From IMG/VR virus record IMGVR_UViG_2778261532_000014: a stretch of DNA of 20,500 nucleotides; one strand, 5' to 3'. The stretch comes from a virus. Taxonomy: Duplodnaviria > Heunggongvirae > Uroviricota > Caudoviricetes. Both the position numbers and the translations under genes were made by a program. Shown piece after piece: positions 3,429 to 14,952 of this stretch. Within the stretch, counting starts at the first letter, position 1. Every line of letters begins with the position of its first letter. Under the pieces are notes generated by a model. That model was not told the origin of the DNA. It saw only the letters and a program-made list of their open reading frames with translations, and did not search any database.

Positions 3429-4206
3429 GTGTCCCCTATCAATATGCTGTTCTTTTCATACTACGAATGATAGTACAATTAAACCAAGATTGGTATACAG
3501 ACCACCCGTCGTCCAGCACAAAAATTTTGTTGGTGGTGAGGTTGAAAAACGCAGTTAAATCATATAGATATGGTTTCTTGAGTATAAAAATACCGTTCTT
3601 AGCCATGCTCAAGAACGGCTTGGTTTTGTTGTTGATAAAAATACTAAAGCTTTAACGAGTCTTAAATCAATATTGAAATAACAAAATCAAATTAATTAAC
3701 AAGAGGTTTATCATTGAAAAAATATAACCCAAGAAAAATCATTAATTTTGAGTTCCAATTAATACAAAATACAACTTAATAATGCTCATGAATATATTAA
3801 ATCATTAATGCAGATAGTATTATTACCGAATAGGAACACAGCAACTTAGCTTATTCTGCCCTATTTATACCACTGCTCCTGACCTTGTGTGGTAGCAGGA
3901 GCATCAGACCAGTCACGATTCTTGGGTTGCTGACTTGGGGCACGATCATTACTTGATACATTCTACTTTTCTTCCTTGAGAACCTTAATATTTCCATATG
4001 TCGCTACTTTACACTCCTGCTTTCAGGCCTACATTCATACGGGGTTCAGCGTGCTTTAAACTATACTTCGCTTACCATTAAAATATTGTATTTCTTAGTA
4101 TCAGCCGATGACTTTACCCTTTTGGGGCTCGGGACATTTTCTCTTGTATATTTCAGGAAAATATTAAATAACCATTTATCCATATAGTGATGTCAACTAA
4201 TAGCTA

Positions 4207-8117: not shown

Positions 8118-8792
8118 TTAGGCCTTTATTGTGTATCTTCTTGGTTTTCCCGAGAAAATCACTGTACCAATTATAGAGCAATTACCGTTAATCTTAATGT
8201 AAGGCTCAGGCCAGTTTGGGTTTAATGCTTTGAGATAACGCTGTGTTCCATCTTCTATCAACCGCTTGAAGGTGGTTTCGCCTGAATCGTGCATCAATGC
8301 AATAACGTCGTCACCGTGGCAGGCAGGGACTTCAGGATCTACAAAAATCATGTCTCCCGGGCGGTACTCATCAATCATTGAATCACCAATCACCCGCAAG
8401 ATATAAGTCATTTCGCCACAGGGTACAGGGCAGGGATAAGTTTCTGCTGTGCTCAAATCAACCTCAGAATAGCCAACTTCTTTCCATGCTCCGGCCTGTA
8501 CCCATGATATGACAGGGACTAACGTTATTTGTTTGTTAGTAATTGAAACATCAGGTTTTTTTGTGATGTTTGTTGTCTGGTGTTCTTGATCAAGCCATCC
8601 GACAGGCAGGTCGAAACATTTTTCGATGTGCCGTGCCATGCTGTCACCGATATTTTTAGTAGCACCATCTCCCATAAACCTGCTGGTCTGGGTTGGCTCG
8701 CGATCAATCATGGTGGCAAAGGAAGAATTCCCGCCAACACCATCTCTCAGTTTTCTGGCGTTAGACCGCCGGATGTCATGGACTGTTTTCAT
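8118..8792 (-). CDS. CI-like phage repressor (N-terminal HTH, C-terminal S24 LexA-like autopeptidase domain)
   Basis: 224-aa ORF; C-terminal GDSM (Ser nucleophile) and downstream Lys typical of S24 peptidases; divergent from cro. Confidence 0.9.
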   Translation of the reverse strand: MKTVHDIRRSNARKLRDGVGGNSSFATMIDREPTQTSRFMGDGATKNIGDSMARHIEKCFDLPVGWLDQEHQTTNITKKPDVSITNKQITLVPVISWVQAGAWKEVGYSEVDLSTAETYPCPVPCGEMTYILRVIGDSMIDEYRPGDMIFVDPEVPACHGDDVIALMHDSGETTFKRLIEDGTQRYLKALNPNWPEPYIKINGNCSIIGTVIFSGKPRRYTIKA

Positions 8793-9678: not shown

Positions 9679-10511
9679 ACAGTTTAACGGCAAATAACCG
9701 TTTGTCGCAACAGCTGGTGGTCAGTGTCGCTGAACACCTGTTGTTACGGCATGAATGCAGATTACCAAATCACCTGGCTGTAAGTAACCACAGAGAACTT
9801 TACCTGACTGTGGGGGGCGAGTTGTGCAGGAACTTAACCGCTGGTTTCGTGACGGAAGAGGGCTTTATGTCCATGTTATTCGTTGGGAGCCAGAAACACA
9901 GCGCGTTATCTATCTTCGCAAAGACTACCCGCATGAGTGCTTTAGTCCTTTGTGGAAATTCAGGCGTGATTTTGTTGAGTGTGAAGGACCACCAGCACAT
10001 TGATTCTGCCATTCCGGGACGTTACACTGTTCAGGCACCTTATAAAGCGGGTGCCGGGATTGGCGTCCTGGAAATGTTATCGGCGATATATGACGCGCCA
10101 GCGTCTTTTTTATCGTCTGCGTCTGCGCACCCCCAAATTATGGTGGGCTGGACGGGGGCACCGAAAGGTGCGCCGGTTTCCGATAACGCCGGTTACGCCA
10201 ACCCCGTTCAGTTCACCACCAGCGAAATTGGCGTTTCCGGTGGTGAAGGTAATTCACTGTTATCGGAGGCTGTCATCATGGCTACTGTCCCAGCCCTCAC
10301 TCGTCTGAATGATGAAGACTTACATAAACTCAGTTATGTAACAACTGCACTACGTGCTCTGCGCAAGGTAACTCTTTCGGATCCGCAGGCGCATCAGGTT
10401 CTGGTAGAAACCCTTCTTAACTTGCAGGCTGAACGTATTCGTCTGGCGGATAAGGCTAATTTTCATATTCACCGTCTCCTGAATATCAGCGGAGGGCATC
10501 GTCATGCTTAA
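9675..10511 (+). CDS. Hypothetical protein(s); reading frame ambiguous in the first third
   Basis: 278-aa open frame with ATGA and ATGCTTAA overlaps at both ends; region 10010-10511 has clear coding periodicity; a protein-like alternative frame exists at 9788-10003 next to a G6 run (see findings). Confidence 0.45.
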   Translation: MNSLTANNRLSQQLVVSVAEHLLLRHECRLPNHLAVSNHRELYLTVGGELCRNLTAGFVTEEGFMSMLFVGSQKHSALSIFAKTTRMSALVLCGNSGVILLSVKDHQHIDSAIPGRYTVQAPYKAGAGIGVLEMLSAIYDAPASFLSSASAHPQIMVGWTGAPKGAPVSDNAGYANPVQFTTSEIGVSGGEGNSLLSEAVIMATVPALTRLNDEDLHKLSYVTTALRALRKVTLSDPQAHQVLVETLLNLQAERIRLADKANFHIHRLLNISGGHRHA

Positions 10512-10740
10512 TCCGTTGATCCTCAATATTTGCCGTTTGCTTCAGCGTAAAAAAACATCAATTCCTACAGTTGGGCAGTGGTACACCACGCCTGCAGGGC
10601 ATGTTCTACGTGTTAGCCTGGTTGACCGTGAATGCCAGAAGGTGATTTGTGAACCGCTGGGCCGTAATTACCGCGTCATTATGCCGCTTATAGCCTTTCG
10701 CTCCGGAAAAAACATGAAGCATCTCGGAGGTGCAGCATGA
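10504..10740 (+). CDS. Hypothetical small phage protein
   Basis: 78-aa ORF; GGAGGG RBS 7 nt upstream; start/stop overlaps with both neighbours. Confidence 0.55.
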   Translation: MLNPLILNICRLLQRKKTSIPTVGQWYTTPAGHVLRVSLVDRECQKVICEPLGRNYRVIMPLIAFRSGKNMKHLGGAA

Positions 10741-11555
10741 GTATGGAGCTGATGGTTAAAGCGATGAAAATTAGAGTGGGTAATCCATTGCGAAAACTGG
10801 TTCTGATCAAGCTGGCTGATAATGCCAGCGATAAGGGTGAGTGCTGGCCCAGCTACCAGCATATTGCTGACCAGTGCGAGATTAGCAAACGTTCTGTGAT
10901 GAATCATATTGCGGCCCTTTGTGAGTCCGGGCTGGTAAAAAAAGTCACCCGGAAAGGTGAAAAAGGTAACTCAAGTAATATCTATCTCCTTCATCTTGAT
11001 GGTGCAGGAGATTCACTAGGGGGTAGTGCAAATGATTCACTATCTGGTGCAGCAAATTCACCAGGTAGTGCAGGAGTTGCACTTGGGGGTAGTGCAGGAG
11101 ATTCACCCAGAACCAGTCACTCTTTTGAACCAGTCAAAGAACCAGTCAATGAACCAATAGCTGTTGGTGAATCTGCTGATGAGTCTGTGCGAGTTCGTTC
11201 AAACCGACCGGAATACTCTCCGGAGTTTGAGCAGGCATGGCTGGCATACCCCAAACGTGCTGGTGGCAATTCAAAATCTGCAGCCTTCAAAGCCTGGAAA
11301 GCCCGTTTGAATGAGGGGGTAAAACCCGAAACCATGCTGGAAGGTGTGAAACGCTACGCGGGCTGGGTATCTGCGATGGGTAACAGCGGCACACAATTTG
11401 TGAAACAGGCTGTCACGTTCTTTGGTCCGGATCGTCATTTCGAAGAATCCTGGGAAGTTCCTGCGGTATCTGCAGCCAGACGCGAGGACCCGTACTTCAA
11501 AGCCAGTTACGACAACGTGGACTACAGCCAGATCCCGGCAGGATTCAGGGGGTGA
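10737..11555 (+). CDS. Phage replication initiation protein (O-like replisome organizer with N-terminal winged helix)
   Basis: 272-aa ORF; GGAGG RBS; N-terminal HTH segment typical of phage replication initiators; internal DNA iterons consistent with an ori embedded in the initiator gene, as in lambda O. Confidence 0.75.
   Translation: MSMELMVKAMKIRVGNPLRKLVLIKLADNASDKGECWPSYQHIADQCEISKRSVMNHIAALCESGLVKKVTRKGEKGNSSNIYLLHLDGAGDSLGGSANDSLSGAANSPGSAGVALGGSAGDSPRTSHSFEPVKEPVNEPIAVGESADESVRVRSNRPEYSPEFEQAWLAYPKRAGGNSKSAAFKAWKARLNEGVKPETMLEGVKRYAGWVSAMGNSGTQFVKQAVTFFGPDRHFEESWEVPAVSAARREDPYFKASYDNVDYSQIPAGFRG
11001..11160. repeat. Iteron-like direct repeats inside replication gene (putative ori)
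   Basis: About five ~21-bp units with core TGCA-N3-4-ATTCAC (11001-11107) followed by three GAACCAGTCA repeats (11109-11160). Confidence 0.6.
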
Positions 11556-11557
11556 TT

Positions 11558-12046
11558 ATGAGTCTTTTGAATGAAGTTCAGAAATTCATTGAAGCCCATC
11601 CGGGGTGTACTTCCGGAGACATTGCGGATGCTTTTGCTGGTTACTCACGGCAGCGCGTTCTGCAGTCAGCAAGCAAGTTACGTCAGAGTGGGCGTGTGGC
11701 TCACCGTTGTGAAGGAGATACACGCAGACATTTCCCGCGCCTGACTGAGAGAGCGCAGGAGCCGGAACCACAATCTGTTCGTGAAACCAGACCTGTGCGC
11801 AATTTCTATGTCGGCACTAACGATCCCCGTGTGATTTTGTGCCTGACCCGCCAGGCTGAAGAACTGGAGTCCAGGGGCTTATACCGTCGTGCTGCAACGG
11901 TGTGGATGGCGGCATTCCGTGAAAGCCACTCCCAGCCAGAACGAAACAATTTTCTGGCGCGTCGTGAGCAGTGTTTACGGAAAAGCAGCAAGCGCGCTGT
12001 ATCGGGTGATGAGTGGTATCTGTCAGGGAATTACGTGGGGGCTTAA
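11558..12046 (+). CDS. PerC-family transcriptional regulator-like protein
   Basis: ATG 11558 with AGGGGG RBS 6 nt upstream (track starts at GTG 11552); motif LESRGLYRRAATVWMAAF...FLARREQCLRK matches the PerC/Pch signature as I recall it. Confidence 0.65.
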   Translation: MSLLNEVQKFIEAHPGCTSGDIADAFAGYSRQRVLQSASKLRQSGRVAHRCEGDTRRHFPRLTERAQEPEPQSVRETRPVRNFYVGTNDPRVILCLTRQAEELESRGLYRRAATVWMAAFRESHSQPERNNFLARREQCLRKSSKRAVSGDEWYLSGNYVGA

Positions 12047-12372
12047 TGACGACGTTAACTCAATGCCAGCAGCAGGTGCTGGATATGCTGATTTCTTATC
12101 AGAAAGAACGTGGTTTCCCGCCAACCAATCAGGAGGTGGCAGCCATGCTGGGATACCGTTCGGTGAATGCAGCGGTGGAGCATCTTCGCGCACTGGAGAA
12201 AAAAGGCGTCATCACGATAAAGCGTGGCGTGGCCCGGGGTATCACGCTTCATACCACAGTGAAGGACGACGACAGCGAGGCAGCCGGGATTATCCGCGCA
12301 CTGCTTGCCGGTGAGGAAAACGCCAGACTGCGTGCAGCCCACTGGTTACATGAGAGGGGCCTGAAAGTATGA
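12046..12372 (+). CDS. LexA N-terminal DNA-binding-domain protein lacking the S24 peptidase domain
   Basis: 108 aa from ATG 12046 (TAATG overlap); MTTLTQCQQQVLDMLISYQKERGFPPTNQEVAAMLGYRSVNAAVEHLRALEKKGVITIKRGVARGITL aligns closely with the LexA winged-helix domain; no cleavage-site or Ser/Lys domain follows. Confidence 0.8.
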   Translation: MTTLTQCQQQVLDMLISYQKERGFPPTNQEVAAMLGYRSVNAAVEHLRALEKKGVITIKRGVARGITLHTTVKDDDSEAAGIIRALLAGEENARLRAAHWLHERGLKV

Positions 12373-12758
12373 AGCTGATCCTGCCTTTCCCGCCCAGCGT
12401 GAACACGTACTGGCGACACCCCAACAAAGGGGCGTTTGCTGGTAAGAGTCTGATAAGCGCAGCGGGGCGCAAATTCCAGAGCGCGGCATGCGCAGCAATA
12501 GTTGAGCAGTTACGTCGTCTGCCGAAACCAACGTCGGCACCTGCTTCAGTGGAGATCGTGTTGTTTCCTCCGGATAACCGGATCCGCGATCTGGACAACT
12601 ATAACAAGGCGCTGTTTGACGCCCTGACCCACGCGGGTGTGTGGGAAGACGACAGACAGGTGAAAAGAATGCTGGTGGAGTGGGGACCGGTTATCCCGAA
12701 AGGGAAGGTCGAGATCACTATCAGTAAGTATGAGAAACCGGCGGGTGCAGCCGCCTGA
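12369..12758 (+). CDS. rusA: RusA-family Holliday junction resolvase
   Basis: 129-aa ORF; ATGA overlap with upstream gene; conserved RusA features (PPSVNTYWRH, DLDNYNKALFDALT). Confidence 0.9.
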   Translation: MKLILPFPPSVNTYWRHPNKGAFAGKSLISAAGRKFQSAACAAIVEQLRRLPKPTSAPASVEIVLFPPDNRIRDLDNYNKALFDALTHAGVWEDDRQVKRMLVEWGPVIPKGKVEITISKYEKPAGAAA

Positions 12759-12777
12759 TTAAGAGGAGAAACGAAGT

Positions 12778-13575
12778 ATGAATAATCTGATGGTTATTGA
12801 TGGTATTGAAGTTCGTCGTGATGCTTATGGGCGTTACAGCCTGAACGATCTGCACAGGGCTGCTGGTTCTCTGGATAAGCATAAGCCTGCATTCTGGCTC
12901 CGCAATGAGCAAACTGAGCGTTTAATAAGCGAGTTGCAGATTTGCAACTCGGTCAATATAGAGCCAGTTAACGTTATTCGTGGCGGAAATAACCAGGGGA
13001 CGTATGTCTGCAAAGAACTGGTGTATGCCTATGCAATGTGGATCAGCCCGTCATTCCATCTGAAGGTGATCCGTACTTTCGACATGGTAACCAGCGCACC
13101 GGAAAAATTATCCGGACAGGCTGCTGACAAGATGCAGGCTGGTGTGATCCTGCTGGACTTTATGCGCCGGGAATTAAACCTGTCTAACTCATCAGTGCTT
13201 GGAGCCTGTCAGAAGCTTCAGGAGGCTGTTGGCTTACCGAATCTGGCACCGCGCTATGCCATTGATGCTCCTGCTGACGCGCCTGATGGCTCAAGCCGCC
13301 CCACGCTGTCACTGAGTGCACTGCTGAAGCAGTATGGTATCCGCCTGACAGCTAATCAGGCATATCACCAGATGGTGAAGCTGGGGATCGTCGAGCAGCG
13401 CGAACGATACAGCCGTACCGCGATTAACAACATCAAAAAATTCTGGTCGCTGACAGCGAAAGGCTGCATGTTCGGCAAGAATATCACCAGTCCCGCAAAT
13501 CCGCGCGAGACGCAGCCGCATTTCTTCGAATCCCGATTCCCTGAGCTGTTAAAGCTGCTCGATACCGTTCATTGA
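12778..13575 (+). CDS. KilA-N domain protein (antirepressor-like)
   Basis: 265-aa ORF; GAGGAG RBS; N-terminal KilA-N-like region. Confidence 0.75.
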   Translation: MNNLMVIDGIEVRRDAYGRYSLNDLHRAAGSLDKHKPAFWLRNEQTERLISELQICNSVNIEPVNVIRGGNNQGTYVCKELVYAYAMWISPSFHLKVIRTFDMVTSAPEKLSGQAADKMQAGVILLDFMRRELNLSNSSVLGACQKLQEAVGLPNLAPRYAIDAPADAPDGSSRPTLSLSALLKQYGIRLTANQAYHQMVKLGIVEQRERYSRTAINNIKKFWSLTAKGCMFGKNITSPANPRETQPHFFESRFPELLKLLDTVH

Positions 13576-13576
13576 G

Positions 13577-14572
13577 GTGACCGTGAGAGCACTACTGACC
13601 CCTGAAATTGCCCCGCGTATGGGGATCGTATTGTTCAGGCCAGGTTCAGAGTTGATGCCCCTGTTTATGCAGGGGCGTGTCCTGCTGGAGCCTGAGCCGG
13701 AACGTTATTCATCTTTCGCCAGTGGTGCCGTTCCGGCGGCATCACAACCGCTGGCGGATGATCCTGCCGTTCGGGCCGTGTTCCGCAATGAGGCAGTGAT
13801 CCGTCGTGCTGGTGGCGTGGAATGTCTTGAAAGCTGGTTACTTCGTGAAAAAGGCTGCCAGTGGCCTCATTCCGACTGGCACAGCGAGAACATGACCACA
13901 ATGCGACACGCTCCGGGCGCAATCCGTCTGTGCTGGCACTGCGATAACCAGCTGCGCGATCAGTTCACGGAACGGCTGGAATCAATGGCAACGGATAACT
14001 GTGCCCGCTGGGTGTTGTCTGTTGTGCGTCGGGATCTCGGTTTTGATGACAGTCACGTTGTGACAATGCCGGAACTGTGCTGGTGGCTGATTCGTAATGA
14101 TCTGGCGGATGCCTTACCGGAAAGTGCAGCCCGTAAGGCACTGAGATTACCGAAGCCTGTTGTGCCGTCTGTCACCCGGGAAAGTGACCTTGTGCCTTCG
14201 GTTCCTGCCACCAGCATCATCCAGGATAAAGCGAAAAAGGTGCTGGCGCTGAAAGTGGATCCGGAGTCGCCGGAGTCTTTTATGTTACGCCCAAAACGTC
14301 GCCGCTGGGTTAATGAAAAGTACACGCGCTGGGTTAAGACACAGCCGTGTGCATGTTGTGGAAAGCCCGCTGATGATCCCCACCACCTGATAGGCCACGG
14401 TCAGTGTGGAATGGGTACAAAAGCGCATGACCTTTTTGTGTTGCCTTTGTGCAGAAAGCATCACGACGAGCTGCATGCGGATACCGTGGCATTTGAAGAG
14501 AGGTATGGCTCCCAGCTGGAGCTGATATTTCGTTTTATCGATCGTGCGCTGGCAATTGGCGTGCTGGCCTGA
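13577..14572 (+). CDS. DUF968 domain protein (HNH/zinc-finger-like C-terminus)
   Basis: 331-aa ORF; C-terminal CACCGKP...HHLIGHG...CRKHHDELH motif typical of DUF968; start codon uncertain (GTG 13577 or downstream). Confidence 0.75.
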   Translation: MTVRALLTPEIAPRMGIVLFRPGSELMPLFMQGRVLLEPEPERYSSFASGAVPAASQPLADDPAVRAVFRNEAVIRRAGGVECLESWLLREKGCQWPHSDWHSENMTTMRHAPGAIRLCWHCDNQLRDQFTERLESMATDNCARWVLSVVRRDLGFDDSHVVTMPELCWWLIRNDLADALPESAARKALRLPKPVVPSVTRESDLVPSVPATSIIQDKAKKVLALKVDPESPESFMLRPKRRRWVNEKYTRWVKTQPCACCGKPADDPHHLIGHGQCGMGTKAHDLFVLPLCRKHHDELHADTVAFEERYGSQLELIFRFIDRALAIGVLA

Positions 14573-14589
14573 TTTTGTGGAGAAAGTTG

Positions 14590-14952
14590 ATGCGTGATAT
14601 TCAAATGGTTCTGGATCGTTGGGGAGCATGGGCGGCGAGTGATAGTTCAGGAGTAGACTATTCTCCTATAGCTGCTGGGTTTAAAGGGCTTCTTCCCTAT
14701 ACAAGCAAAACACGTCAGGCTTGTTCAGATAGTGATGCATTAATTATTGAAGGTTGTCTTGCTCTTCTTAAAAAGCGAAAACCGTACGAGCATTCTTTGA
14801 TTGTGGCCCATTACCTGTATGGCATCTCGAAAAGAAAGCTTGCAAGAGCTCGCAAAAAAGATGAGAAATTGATACGTATAGAGATACAGATGGCTGAAGG
14901 GTTTATTGATGGATGCCTTTCAATGCTGGATGTTAAACTTGAAATGGAGTAG
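14590..14952 (+). CDS. Late-gene antitermination protein Q (QuuD/Q82-like family)
   Basis: 120 aa from ATG 14590 with GGAG RBS; MRDIQMVLDRWGAWAA N-terminus and overall pattern match DLP12 QuuD-type Q proteins as recalled. Confidence 0.85.
   Translation: MRDIQMVLDRWGAWAASDSSGVDYSPIAAGFKGLLPYTSKTRQACSDSDALIIEGCLALLKKRKPYEHSLIVAHYLYGISKRKLARARKKDEKLIRIEIQMAEGFIDGCLSMLDVKLEME

Follow-up and report, generated by a model that had tools for sequence, protein, structure and literature searches.

Where does replication begin in a lambdoid prophage that carries an initiator gene of the "solo" type, with no helicase, loader or primase gene to accompany it? The question is raised by a 20,500-nt stretch of viral DNA (IMG/VR record IMGVR_UViG_2778261532_000014; hereafter the window), in which a gene for a 272-aa replication initiator (10737..11555, + strand) was identified from the open reading frame (ORF) list and its translation together with PHROG and Pfam searches. 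The stretch from the end of this gene to the Q antiterminator gene (11552-14952) contains no gene for a helicase, loader or primase, and the O-P pairing, in which a helicase loader is encoded beside the initiator, does not occur in the window. Based upon comparisons with related loci we propose, with a probability of roughly 0.7, that positions 11002-11155 constitute the vegetative origin of this prophage, embedded in its own initiator gene. The anatomy of this segment, selection at the DNA level on both of its elements, the correspondence between recognition helix and iteron class, a fixed junction between the two elements and modular exchange were all directly observed.

That the gene specifies a replication initiator, as the initial annotation had stated, is well borne out. 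Residues 3-271 match phrog_270 [replication initiation protein; E 8e-88], residues 17-67 match Pfam HTH_36 [PF13730; 44.4 bits against a cut-off of 25, E 1.4e-11], and the gene stands in the canonical lambdoid position. Its sole other Pfam match is a sub-threshold one to DnaD_N, and a sequence search of the PDB gave no match; further PHROG matches are to phrog_26426, phrog_1701 [DnaD-like helicase loader] and phrog_9327 [primosomal protein]. The gene belongs to the SfV/ST64B/cdtI/Stx2c type of lambdoid initiators. Genes 97-99% identical to it occur in phages SfV, cdtI, mEp460, 1720a-02, Ayreon and many Stx2a and Stx2c phages, while that of ST64B is 88% identical; in some phage records the product is annotated as "primosomal protein I."

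The protein falls into three parts. The N-terminal winged-helix DNA-binding domain (aa 1-88; 10737..11000, + strand) was delimited by HTH_36, AlphaFold2 and alignment. Residues 1-90 are modelled as a confident winged helix in the order H-H-H-H-E-E, with a predicted local distance difference test score (pLDDT) of 73-93. Within the family residues 1-48 are nearly invariant, and the recognition helix and wing (approximately aa 49-85) are variable. Foldseek searches with the AlphaFold2 model returned generic winged helices only, including DnaD-N [2v79, E ~0.02]. There follows a linker (aa 91-157; 11007..11207, + strand) predicted to be disordered (pLDDT <50), the coding DNA of which is made up of the iterons, a second repeat block and some 50 further nucleotides; its peptide varies freely across homologues. 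The C-terminal helical domain (approximately aa 160-236; 11214..11444, + strand), recognized from PHROG and from AlphaFold2 helices at 162-236 (pLDDT 57-79), is presumed to be a helicase or primosome recruitment module; Foldseek gave no informative match for it, and past it AlphaFold2 predicts a disordered tail.

The first element of the putative origin begins at codon 89, directly past the winged-helix domain. It is an array of five 15-bp dyads, GTGCA-N5-T(T/G)CAC, occupying 11002..11106 without strand assignment, and was defined with repeat-finding tools and the family motif: GTGCAGGAGATTCAC at 11002-11016, GTGCAAATGATTCAC at 11026-11040, GTGCAGCAAATTCAC at 11047-11061, GTGCAGGAGTTGCAC at 11068-11082 and GTGCAGGAGATTCAC again at 11092-11106. 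Each unit has 5-bp arms around a 5-bp centre and is followed by a spacer of 6-9 bp, which gives start-to-start distances of 24, 21, 21 and 24. Five direct repeats of about 21 bp had been noted here at first; the number of units and their coordinates stand, and the unit itself is better described as a 15-bp dyad plus spacer. Tandem Repeats Finder, the check originally suggested, reported the array at 11002-11106 with 4.7 copies and found no other repeat array of comparable quality in the window. With one mismatch allowed, GTGCANNNNRTTCAC matches six times in the window against 0.91 expected, a count reached in 0/100 shuffles, and all four exact matches fall within the array. The iterons, like the decamers described below, lie wholly inside the initiator ORF. 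The proposal that the repeats encode a Gly/Ser/Ala-rich linker applies to the dyads only, which specify GAGDSLGGSANDSLSGAANSPGSAGVALGGSAGDSP; the decamers encode RTSHSFEPVKEPVNEP.

Just beyond the second element, 18 nt past its end, GGTGAATCTGCTG (11166-11178) is the reverse complement of most of iteron CAGCAGATTCACC. It is a half-site without the second arm and is not kept in ST64B, and is probably either a chance occurrence or a relic.

To what extent these units are DNA sites was judged from approximately 200 related loci. Among them are 80 loci from bacterial assemblies, one genome per species, retrieved solely with the N-terminal peptide patterns KLVL[IL]KLAD and NA[NS]DxGECW; because the repeats played no part in their retrieval this set is not biased toward them. 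It covers Enterobacter, Proteus, Rahnella, Xenorhabdus, Providencia, Erwinia, Pseudomonas, Aeromonas, Shewanella, Marinomonas, Aliivibrio, Halomonadaceae, Marinobacter, Microbulbifer and one Cardiobacteriaceae genome. To these were added annotated phages of Pseudomonas, Vibrio and Stenotrophomonas, Stx phage 24B, and at least 120 viral contigs found via the second element. Since the loci are not phylogenetically independent, the counts given here are descriptive.

In 61 loci the motif GTGMA-N5-TKCAC occurs as 3-7 units per locus at a spacing of 21-24 bp. Arm positions 5 and 11, which are third codon positions and lay outside the search pattern, are A in 141 and T in 139 of the 149 distinct units, carrying 1.65 and 1.60 bits respectively versus 0.27-0.83 bits for the centre. 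Furthermore, the reading frame differs in 40 of 278 units; in Pseudomonas GTA GTG CAG CAG ATT CAC specifies V-V-Q-Q-I-H where the usual frame gives G-A-A-D-S. Copy number ranges from about one to nine across related loci, five being usual and cdtI having eight, and near-identical initiator genes differ by whole units; database proteins accordingly range over 242-302 aa in steps of 7-8 residues. The fixed third positions, the use of a second frame and the dyad symmetry argue that the iterons are under selection as DNA sites and not as peptide. The eventuality that only the protein linker would prove to be conserved among homologues is contradicted on each of these counts, and the designation of the dyads as iterons may be retained.

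The iterons also correspond, nearly class for class, to the protein expected to bind them. Recognition helices of the xRSVMxH type pair with GTGMA-N5-TKCAC in 119/123 cases, KSAVRxH with ATGCCGCCAGAAAGCA-like units in 18/23, RSTVRKH with GTAGGCCCAGAAAGCAC in 8/9 and KRTAMRH with GTGAY-N5-RTCAC in 5/5, and the 24B-type helix RSTVKxH is found with GGGGCAGGAGCTGCC. Divergence is concentrated in the recognition helix and the repeats, while the first 48 residues and the second element stay constant, a pattern consistent with changing protein-DNA specificity.

This second element is a family-invariant block at 11109..11155, again without strand assignment, which reads AGAACCAGTCACTCTTTTGAACCAGTCA, then AAGAACCAGTCA, then ATGAACC. 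It contains three exact copies of the decamer GAACCAGTCA (11110-11119, 11127-11136 and 11139-11148), as initially annotated inside the initiator coding sequence, and a half decamer, GAACC, at 11151-11155. The decamer occurs nowhere else in the window; its bare count is not significant (13/100 shuffles reach three copies), and its significance comes from clustering and from comparative data. Decamer 1 is read A|GAA CCA GTC AC, giving R T S H, and decamers 2 and 3 GAA CCA GTC, giving E P V; because the frames differ this is a DNA repeat and not a peptide repeat. The initial annotation had counted the GAACCAGTCA repeats into the iteron array. They are instead a separate block, in the position taken by the AT-rich region of lambda.

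Conservation of the block is considerable. The 28-mer AGAACCAGTCACTCTTTTGAACCAGTCA was found with three or fewer mismatches in 68 of the 80 loci retrieved by N-terminal peptides. Nine of ten loci failing this search keep the decamers, re-spaced or re-framed, and the tenth, Shewanella profunda (L157), has the variant decamer GAATCTATCA twice (~nt 1560-1600 of the locus), which suggests a concerted change of both copies; comparison of its N-terminal 48 residues revealed no change matching the variant. In 24B the first decamer is GAACCTATCA. The block is identical across all iteron-specificity classes and is conserved in more than 12 genera from distantly related gammaproteobacterial groups. In the 120 or more viral contigs it always lies within this initiator family; the N-terminal motif is present in 113/120 block-bearing viral loci, the other seven being truncated copies of the same gene.

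Among 72 distinct loci the synonymous-difference fraction, that is, the proportion of same-amino-acid pairs with different codons, is 0.08 in 13 block codons versus 0.56 in 42 codons of the N-terminal domain, with values of 0.00-0.15 in the first ten block codons; for non-synonymous differences the block has the higher fraction (0.26 vs 0.16). Within the block Arg is AGA in 69/69 cases and Ser is AGT in 72/72 and TCT in 70/70, even in the Pseudomonas and Stenotrophomonas phage copies, whereas elsewhere in the same genes both amino acids are spread over at least four codons. A C/T difference is tolerated at decamer position 4 in both copies, although this site is the second of its codon in copy 1 (ACC/ATC) and the first of its codon in copy 2 (CCA/TCA). 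Three Shewanella loci read CAC CCA GAA CCA GTC ACT TTA GAA CCA GTC (HPEPVTLEPV), in which decamer 1 is translated EPVT rather than RTSH and 15 rather than 17 nt separate the copies. Variation follows the coordinates of the decamer, GAAYCAGTMA, and not those of the codons, and the block is constrained as DNA and not as peptide.

The junction with the iterons is fixed: in 60 of 61 arrays the first nucleotide of the block follows that of the last iteron by 17 nt. When duplex stability is averaged over 71 loci, its minimum within ±450 bp falls on the 50 bp that begin with the block (z +1.1 to +1.5), where the least stable 20-nt stretch also lies; at a GC content of 0.37-0.42 the block is in absolute terms moderately A+T-rich. 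Scans for known signals were unproductive. Rfam gave a chance miRNA-like match only, far below threshold, in 10400-12100; a scan for promoters and terminators found none of the former and two sites resembling the latter, a number expected by chance; folding of 10990-11180 as single-stranded DNA was not better than that of shuffled sequences (z -1.1); and inspection by eye showed no fit to the IHF or Fis consensus. A literature search for the decamer string returned miR-134 primers only, and a plasmid search with the block yielded phage-sized (~40 kb) records and misfiled chromosomes, with no characterised replicon. A resemblance of CACTCTTTT to boxA, the NusB/E site, was dropped because the block varies most in this very stretch. 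As a separate observation, the initiators of Pseudomonas bharatica (L110) and Erwinia tracheiphila (L138) are frameshifted and stop inside the block (…HPEPVTLLNQ*); both alternative frames stop within or just past it, and a frameshift in the repeat array therefore yields a protein consisting of the N-terminal domain only.

The block is also a mosaic joint at which modules have been exchanged. At least seven unrelated C-terminal domains follow it in the initiator family, and depending upon the domain the partner gene encodes a DnaC-like loader, a DnaB-like helicase, phrog_6028 or the 24B primase-helicase "P," or there is none. BLAST matches to the initiator gene span either nt 1-407 or nt 425-720. 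In two chimeric relatives identity to the window is below 60% and then jumps at 11110-11118 to 100%, the sequences being identical from 11118 on; both are short metagenome contigs and possibly assembly artefacts. The same is seen in the lambda O family, in which some BLAST matches are confined to O nt 434-900 and others to nt 54-471. In lambda (locus L291, lambda 38500-40400) nt 434 is the left edge of the AT-rich region and nt 471 its right edge, near misc_recomb 39157/39165. The AT-rich origin segment of lambda is also a mosaic joint, and is a direct precedent for an origin element which doubles as a recombination joint.

Several other explanations of these repeats have to be considered. The least probable is that they are low-complexity coding sequence for a flexible linker, expanded by slippage, with the origin elsewhere in the phage. 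The segment does encode a predicted disordered Gly/Ser/Ala/Pro-rich linker, and its units vary in number as slippage predicts. Yet it is the DNA which is conserved and not the peptide, on which constraint is weak since the linker is predicted to be disordered, the same unit appears in two frames, the dyad-symmetric arms have fixed third positions, and nothing comparable is present elsewhere in the window. Hardly more credible is a role of the block as an RNA or translation signal, with a pause at AGA giving the newly synthesized N-terminal domain time to bind in cis the DNA that encodes it, or with recoding to a truncated N-terminal protein. Signals for recoding or pausing typically have frozen synonymous sites, and AGA is among the rare codons. 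The distance from the folded domain to the block, some 36 codons, is roughly the length of the ribosome exit tunnel, and the alternative frames close within the block or shortly after it. Against this, the decamer is conserved in Shewanella in another frame without the AGA codon, CCC-AGA is replaced by ACC-AGA or CAT-AGA in 17/72 loci, no part of the block varies more than the T-run, and there is neither an Rfam match nor significant structure.

It is likewise unlikely, if somewhat less so, that the block is kept only as a homologous recombination "linker" for module exchange and has no role in initiation. Similarity breaks exactly at the block in both directions, a variety of unrelated C-terminal domains is joined to it, and the chimeras agree perfectly beyond 11118 and poorly before it; these chimeras, however, are the contigs which could be misassembled. 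Second-order selection would hardly freeze about 30 synonymous and non-synonymous sites in more than 12 genera while the flanks saturate, it leaves the 17-nt register and the low duplex stability unexplained, and the lambda precedent shows that such joints can arise as by-products at a functional origin element. The alternative which we take most seriously, while holding it only tentatively, refines the origin reading rather than replacing it: the block may be a sequence-specific binding site and not a passive unwinding element, its reader being the first 48 residues of the initiator, acting on double-stranded DNA or a melted strand, or a host factor present throughout the Gammaproteobacteria. 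Consistent with this the block is conserved letter by letter in decamer coordinates and not as base composition, it is confined to loci with this N-terminal family and is lacking in phiP27 L17, and both decamers of the Shewanella profunda locus carry GAATCTATCA. On the other hand no known consensus fits, DnaA boxes and Rfam or promoter matches being equally absent, the N-terminal 48 residues of that locus are not visibly different, no co-variation of protein being seen, and co-occurrence of block and N-terminal domain may be simple linkage.

Returning to the embedded origin which we favour, its working might be pictured as follows. Dimers of the N-terminal winged helix would bind the five dyad iterons, which lie about two helical turns apart, a step to which the comparative evidence points strongly, and the iteron-bound initiator would then form a nucleoprotein complex resembling the O-some. 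Stress within this complex could plausibly open the adjoining block at 11109-11155. Sequence-specific recognition of the GAAYCAGTMA decamers, in double- or single-stranded form, is also probable, the reader being either the invariant part of the initiator or a host factor that is itself conserved. More speculatively, the C-terminal domain and tail, held on a disordered tether which the origin itself encodes, might bring the host helicase, and the terminal SQIPAGFRG might engage the host DnaB-DnaC/primosome pathway. A helicase-recruiting role for this DnaT-like tail is proposed because the phage encodes no helicase or loader.

The tail in question comprises the last nine initiator codons (11526..11552, + strand) and was recognized by BLASTP against DnaT of strain MG1655. 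SQIPAGFRG is identical at eight of nine positions to the E. coli DnaT terminus, SQIPPGFRG (E 0.009 in a single comparison), and the same BLASTP revealed no similarity outside these nine residues. According to PMC5778457, DnaT probably recruits DnaB-DnaC to the primosome. All 33 initiators which combine the window-type C-terminal domain with the lack of an adjacent DnaC-like loader gene end in GFRG, the PerC-like gene being directly next in 32 of them. None of 64 other initiators with this domain does so, and 30 of the 64 have a DnaC-like loader gene next. A second, unrelated C-terminal domain has a GFRG tail together with a DnaC-like gene. The tail may represent mimicry of a host short linear motif. 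Other types of C-terminal domain have conserved tails of their own, for example ...RNEYL, ...EGWKDFI, ...DDSTPL, ...CNW and ...NLNF; several of these, acidic or aromatic in character, recall the C-terminal tails of the SSB type, and each possibly serves to dock a different partner from host or phage.

A bolder proposal combines these elements: the GAAYCAGTMA block would be a universal, sequence-specific origin core as well as a swap joint, and the solo initiator would mimic the DnaT tail in order to hijack DnaB-DnaC loading. As a core, the block would serve a very large family of gammaproteobacterial phage initiators, with either the 48 invariant N-terminal residues or a conserved host factor as its reader; as a joint, it would permit exchange of iteron specificity on one flank and of helicase-recruitment modules on the opposite one. 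We regard this combination as doubtful.

A number of points weigh against the origin proposed here. Our literature search found no binding, unwinding or replication experiment on this initiator family, nor any paper describing its origin; the Llarena 2021 paper on Stx replication regions does not mention iterons. The lack of phylogenetic independence among the loci has been stated above, and the match between helix and iteron classes could in part reflect tight linkage and not co-evolution, the helix and the repeats being only about 150 bp apart. With a GC content of ~0.40 the block is A+T-rich to a moderate degree only, and as its conservation exceeds the need of a passive unwinding element its true role may differ from that suggested. 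There is a second, weaker dip in stability just upstream of the iterons. DnaA boxes (TTWTNCACA) are absent from 10700-11600, the two in the window (334 and 1419) being at chance level. Finally, the DnaT-tail idea consists of nine residues and a correlation.

How does this arrangement compare with known origins? The initial annotation likened it to lambda O/ori. The likeness lies in a DNA-binding domain, dyad iterons, a region that may melt easily and a C-terminal recruitment domain following one another, in the same order as in ori-lambda, within one gene of the early right operon, with the array embedded past the DNA-binding domain. Lambda has four 18-bp iterons with start spacings of 20, 24 and 23, beginning at codon 117 of O and followed by an AT-rich region; the window has five 15-bp iterons spaced 24, 21, 21 and 24, beginning at codon 89, and its iteron-adjacent segment is the 40%-GC GAACCAGTCA block and not an A/T run. 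The C-terminal domain of lambda O binds P, whereas the window has no gene for a P-like loader. Membership of the lambda O family does not hold: PF04492 [Phage_rep_O] was not matched by the window initiator, lambda O as control giving E 5.7e-36, and BLASTP between the two proteins yielded spurious short segments only. The window initiator is therefore lambda-like in architecture and not in ancestry. Variants in iteron number, six versus four, occur in lambda-type Stx phages (PMC7466680).

Location of iterons inside the initiator gene is a general lambdoid rule, seen in lambda, P22 and L (Casjens and co-workers, PMC8022706). Gene 18 of P22 and gene 18 of phage L likewise have their own iterons in mid-gene, within distantly related or unrelated origin-binding proteins. 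They differ in that the DnaB-type helicase gene 12 comes next, L has 11-bp TGTCCAACGGA repeats, and no family-wide invariant block has been described. The iteron plasmids (RK2 TrfA, F RepE and R6K pi) resemble the window in having winged-helix initiators and direct repeats beside a repeat-containing DNA unwinding element. Plasmid Rep proteins bind one strand of the repeats in this element sequence-specifically, which by analogy offers a plausible model for the GAAYCAGTMA decamers. Plasmid origins, however, are intergenic, usually have DnaA boxes and work with Rep_3-type proteins, whereas the window has no DnaA box nearby and its initiator no Rep_3 Pfam match. The phage LLS class is alike in gene organisation, with an origin-binding gene and no helicase or loader gene next to it. 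With DnaT the window initiator shares the terminal nonapeptide only, and homology to the DnaT domains was not found.

The wider neighbourhood of the gene is that of a lambdoid prophage, in which it occupies the canonical replication slot. An integrase gene lies at 1-1224, and upstream of the initiator are genes for a CI-type repressor (8118-8792, minus strand) and for Cro-like, CII-like and Ash-family regulators. Downstream are found, in order, a PerC-like gene (11552-12046), a repressor-like gene (12013-12372), RusA (12369-12758), a regulator gene (12778-13575), an HNH-type gene (13577-14572) and the Q antiterminator gene (14575-14952). In the early-left region there is an apparently non-coding, very A+T-rich, two-copy tandem repeat of about 18-20 bp, AAATCAATATTGAAATAACA, at 3664-3702. 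The phiP27 L17 gene (L167, nt 975-1901) specifies an HTH_36 initiator that shares the window-type C-terminal domain and differs in its N-terminal domain. This gene has palindromic repeats, TCAGAWTCTGA, which encode SDSEPSKSEPSESE, and no copy of the block; DnaC-like and DnaB-like genes come after it. Its "GAACC" repeats were considered as a copy of the block and rejected, being part of its own palindromic iterons. Many database entries for the initiator are labelled "partial" and end in or just past the repeat region (73-156 aa), probably since short-read assemblies break at iterons or block where several prophages per genome share them.

The origin proposed here would be an uncharacterised new member of a well-known kind, the origin embedded in its initiator gene. 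An initiator-only module is present in 34 of 314 Enterobacterales lambdoid phages, for example phage LLS, according to a 2025 survey (PMC12315714), which calls lambdoid phages with only an O-like gene experimentally unstudied and itself describes no origin for them. This O-only class would gain an origin map consisting of iterons, an invariant core, a disordered tether, swappable recruitment domains and a candidate host-hijacking tail. Carriers of the initiator include Stx2a/Stx2c, cdt-I and serotype-converting prophages of E. coli, Shigella and Salmonella, and in Stx phages replication drives toxin output (PMC7466680). The gene is a clean natural example of overlapping coding at the DNA and protein levels in which the two functions are separable, and its repeats and block account for frequent assembly breaks inside it. 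Two features stand out beyond this: a block conserved at the nucleotide level in more than 12 gammaproteobacterial genera, the function of which is suggested by its position and by analogy, and a DnaT-like tail on an initiator without a loader. If it is true, mimicry of the DnaT tail would show the role of that tail in DnaT itself.

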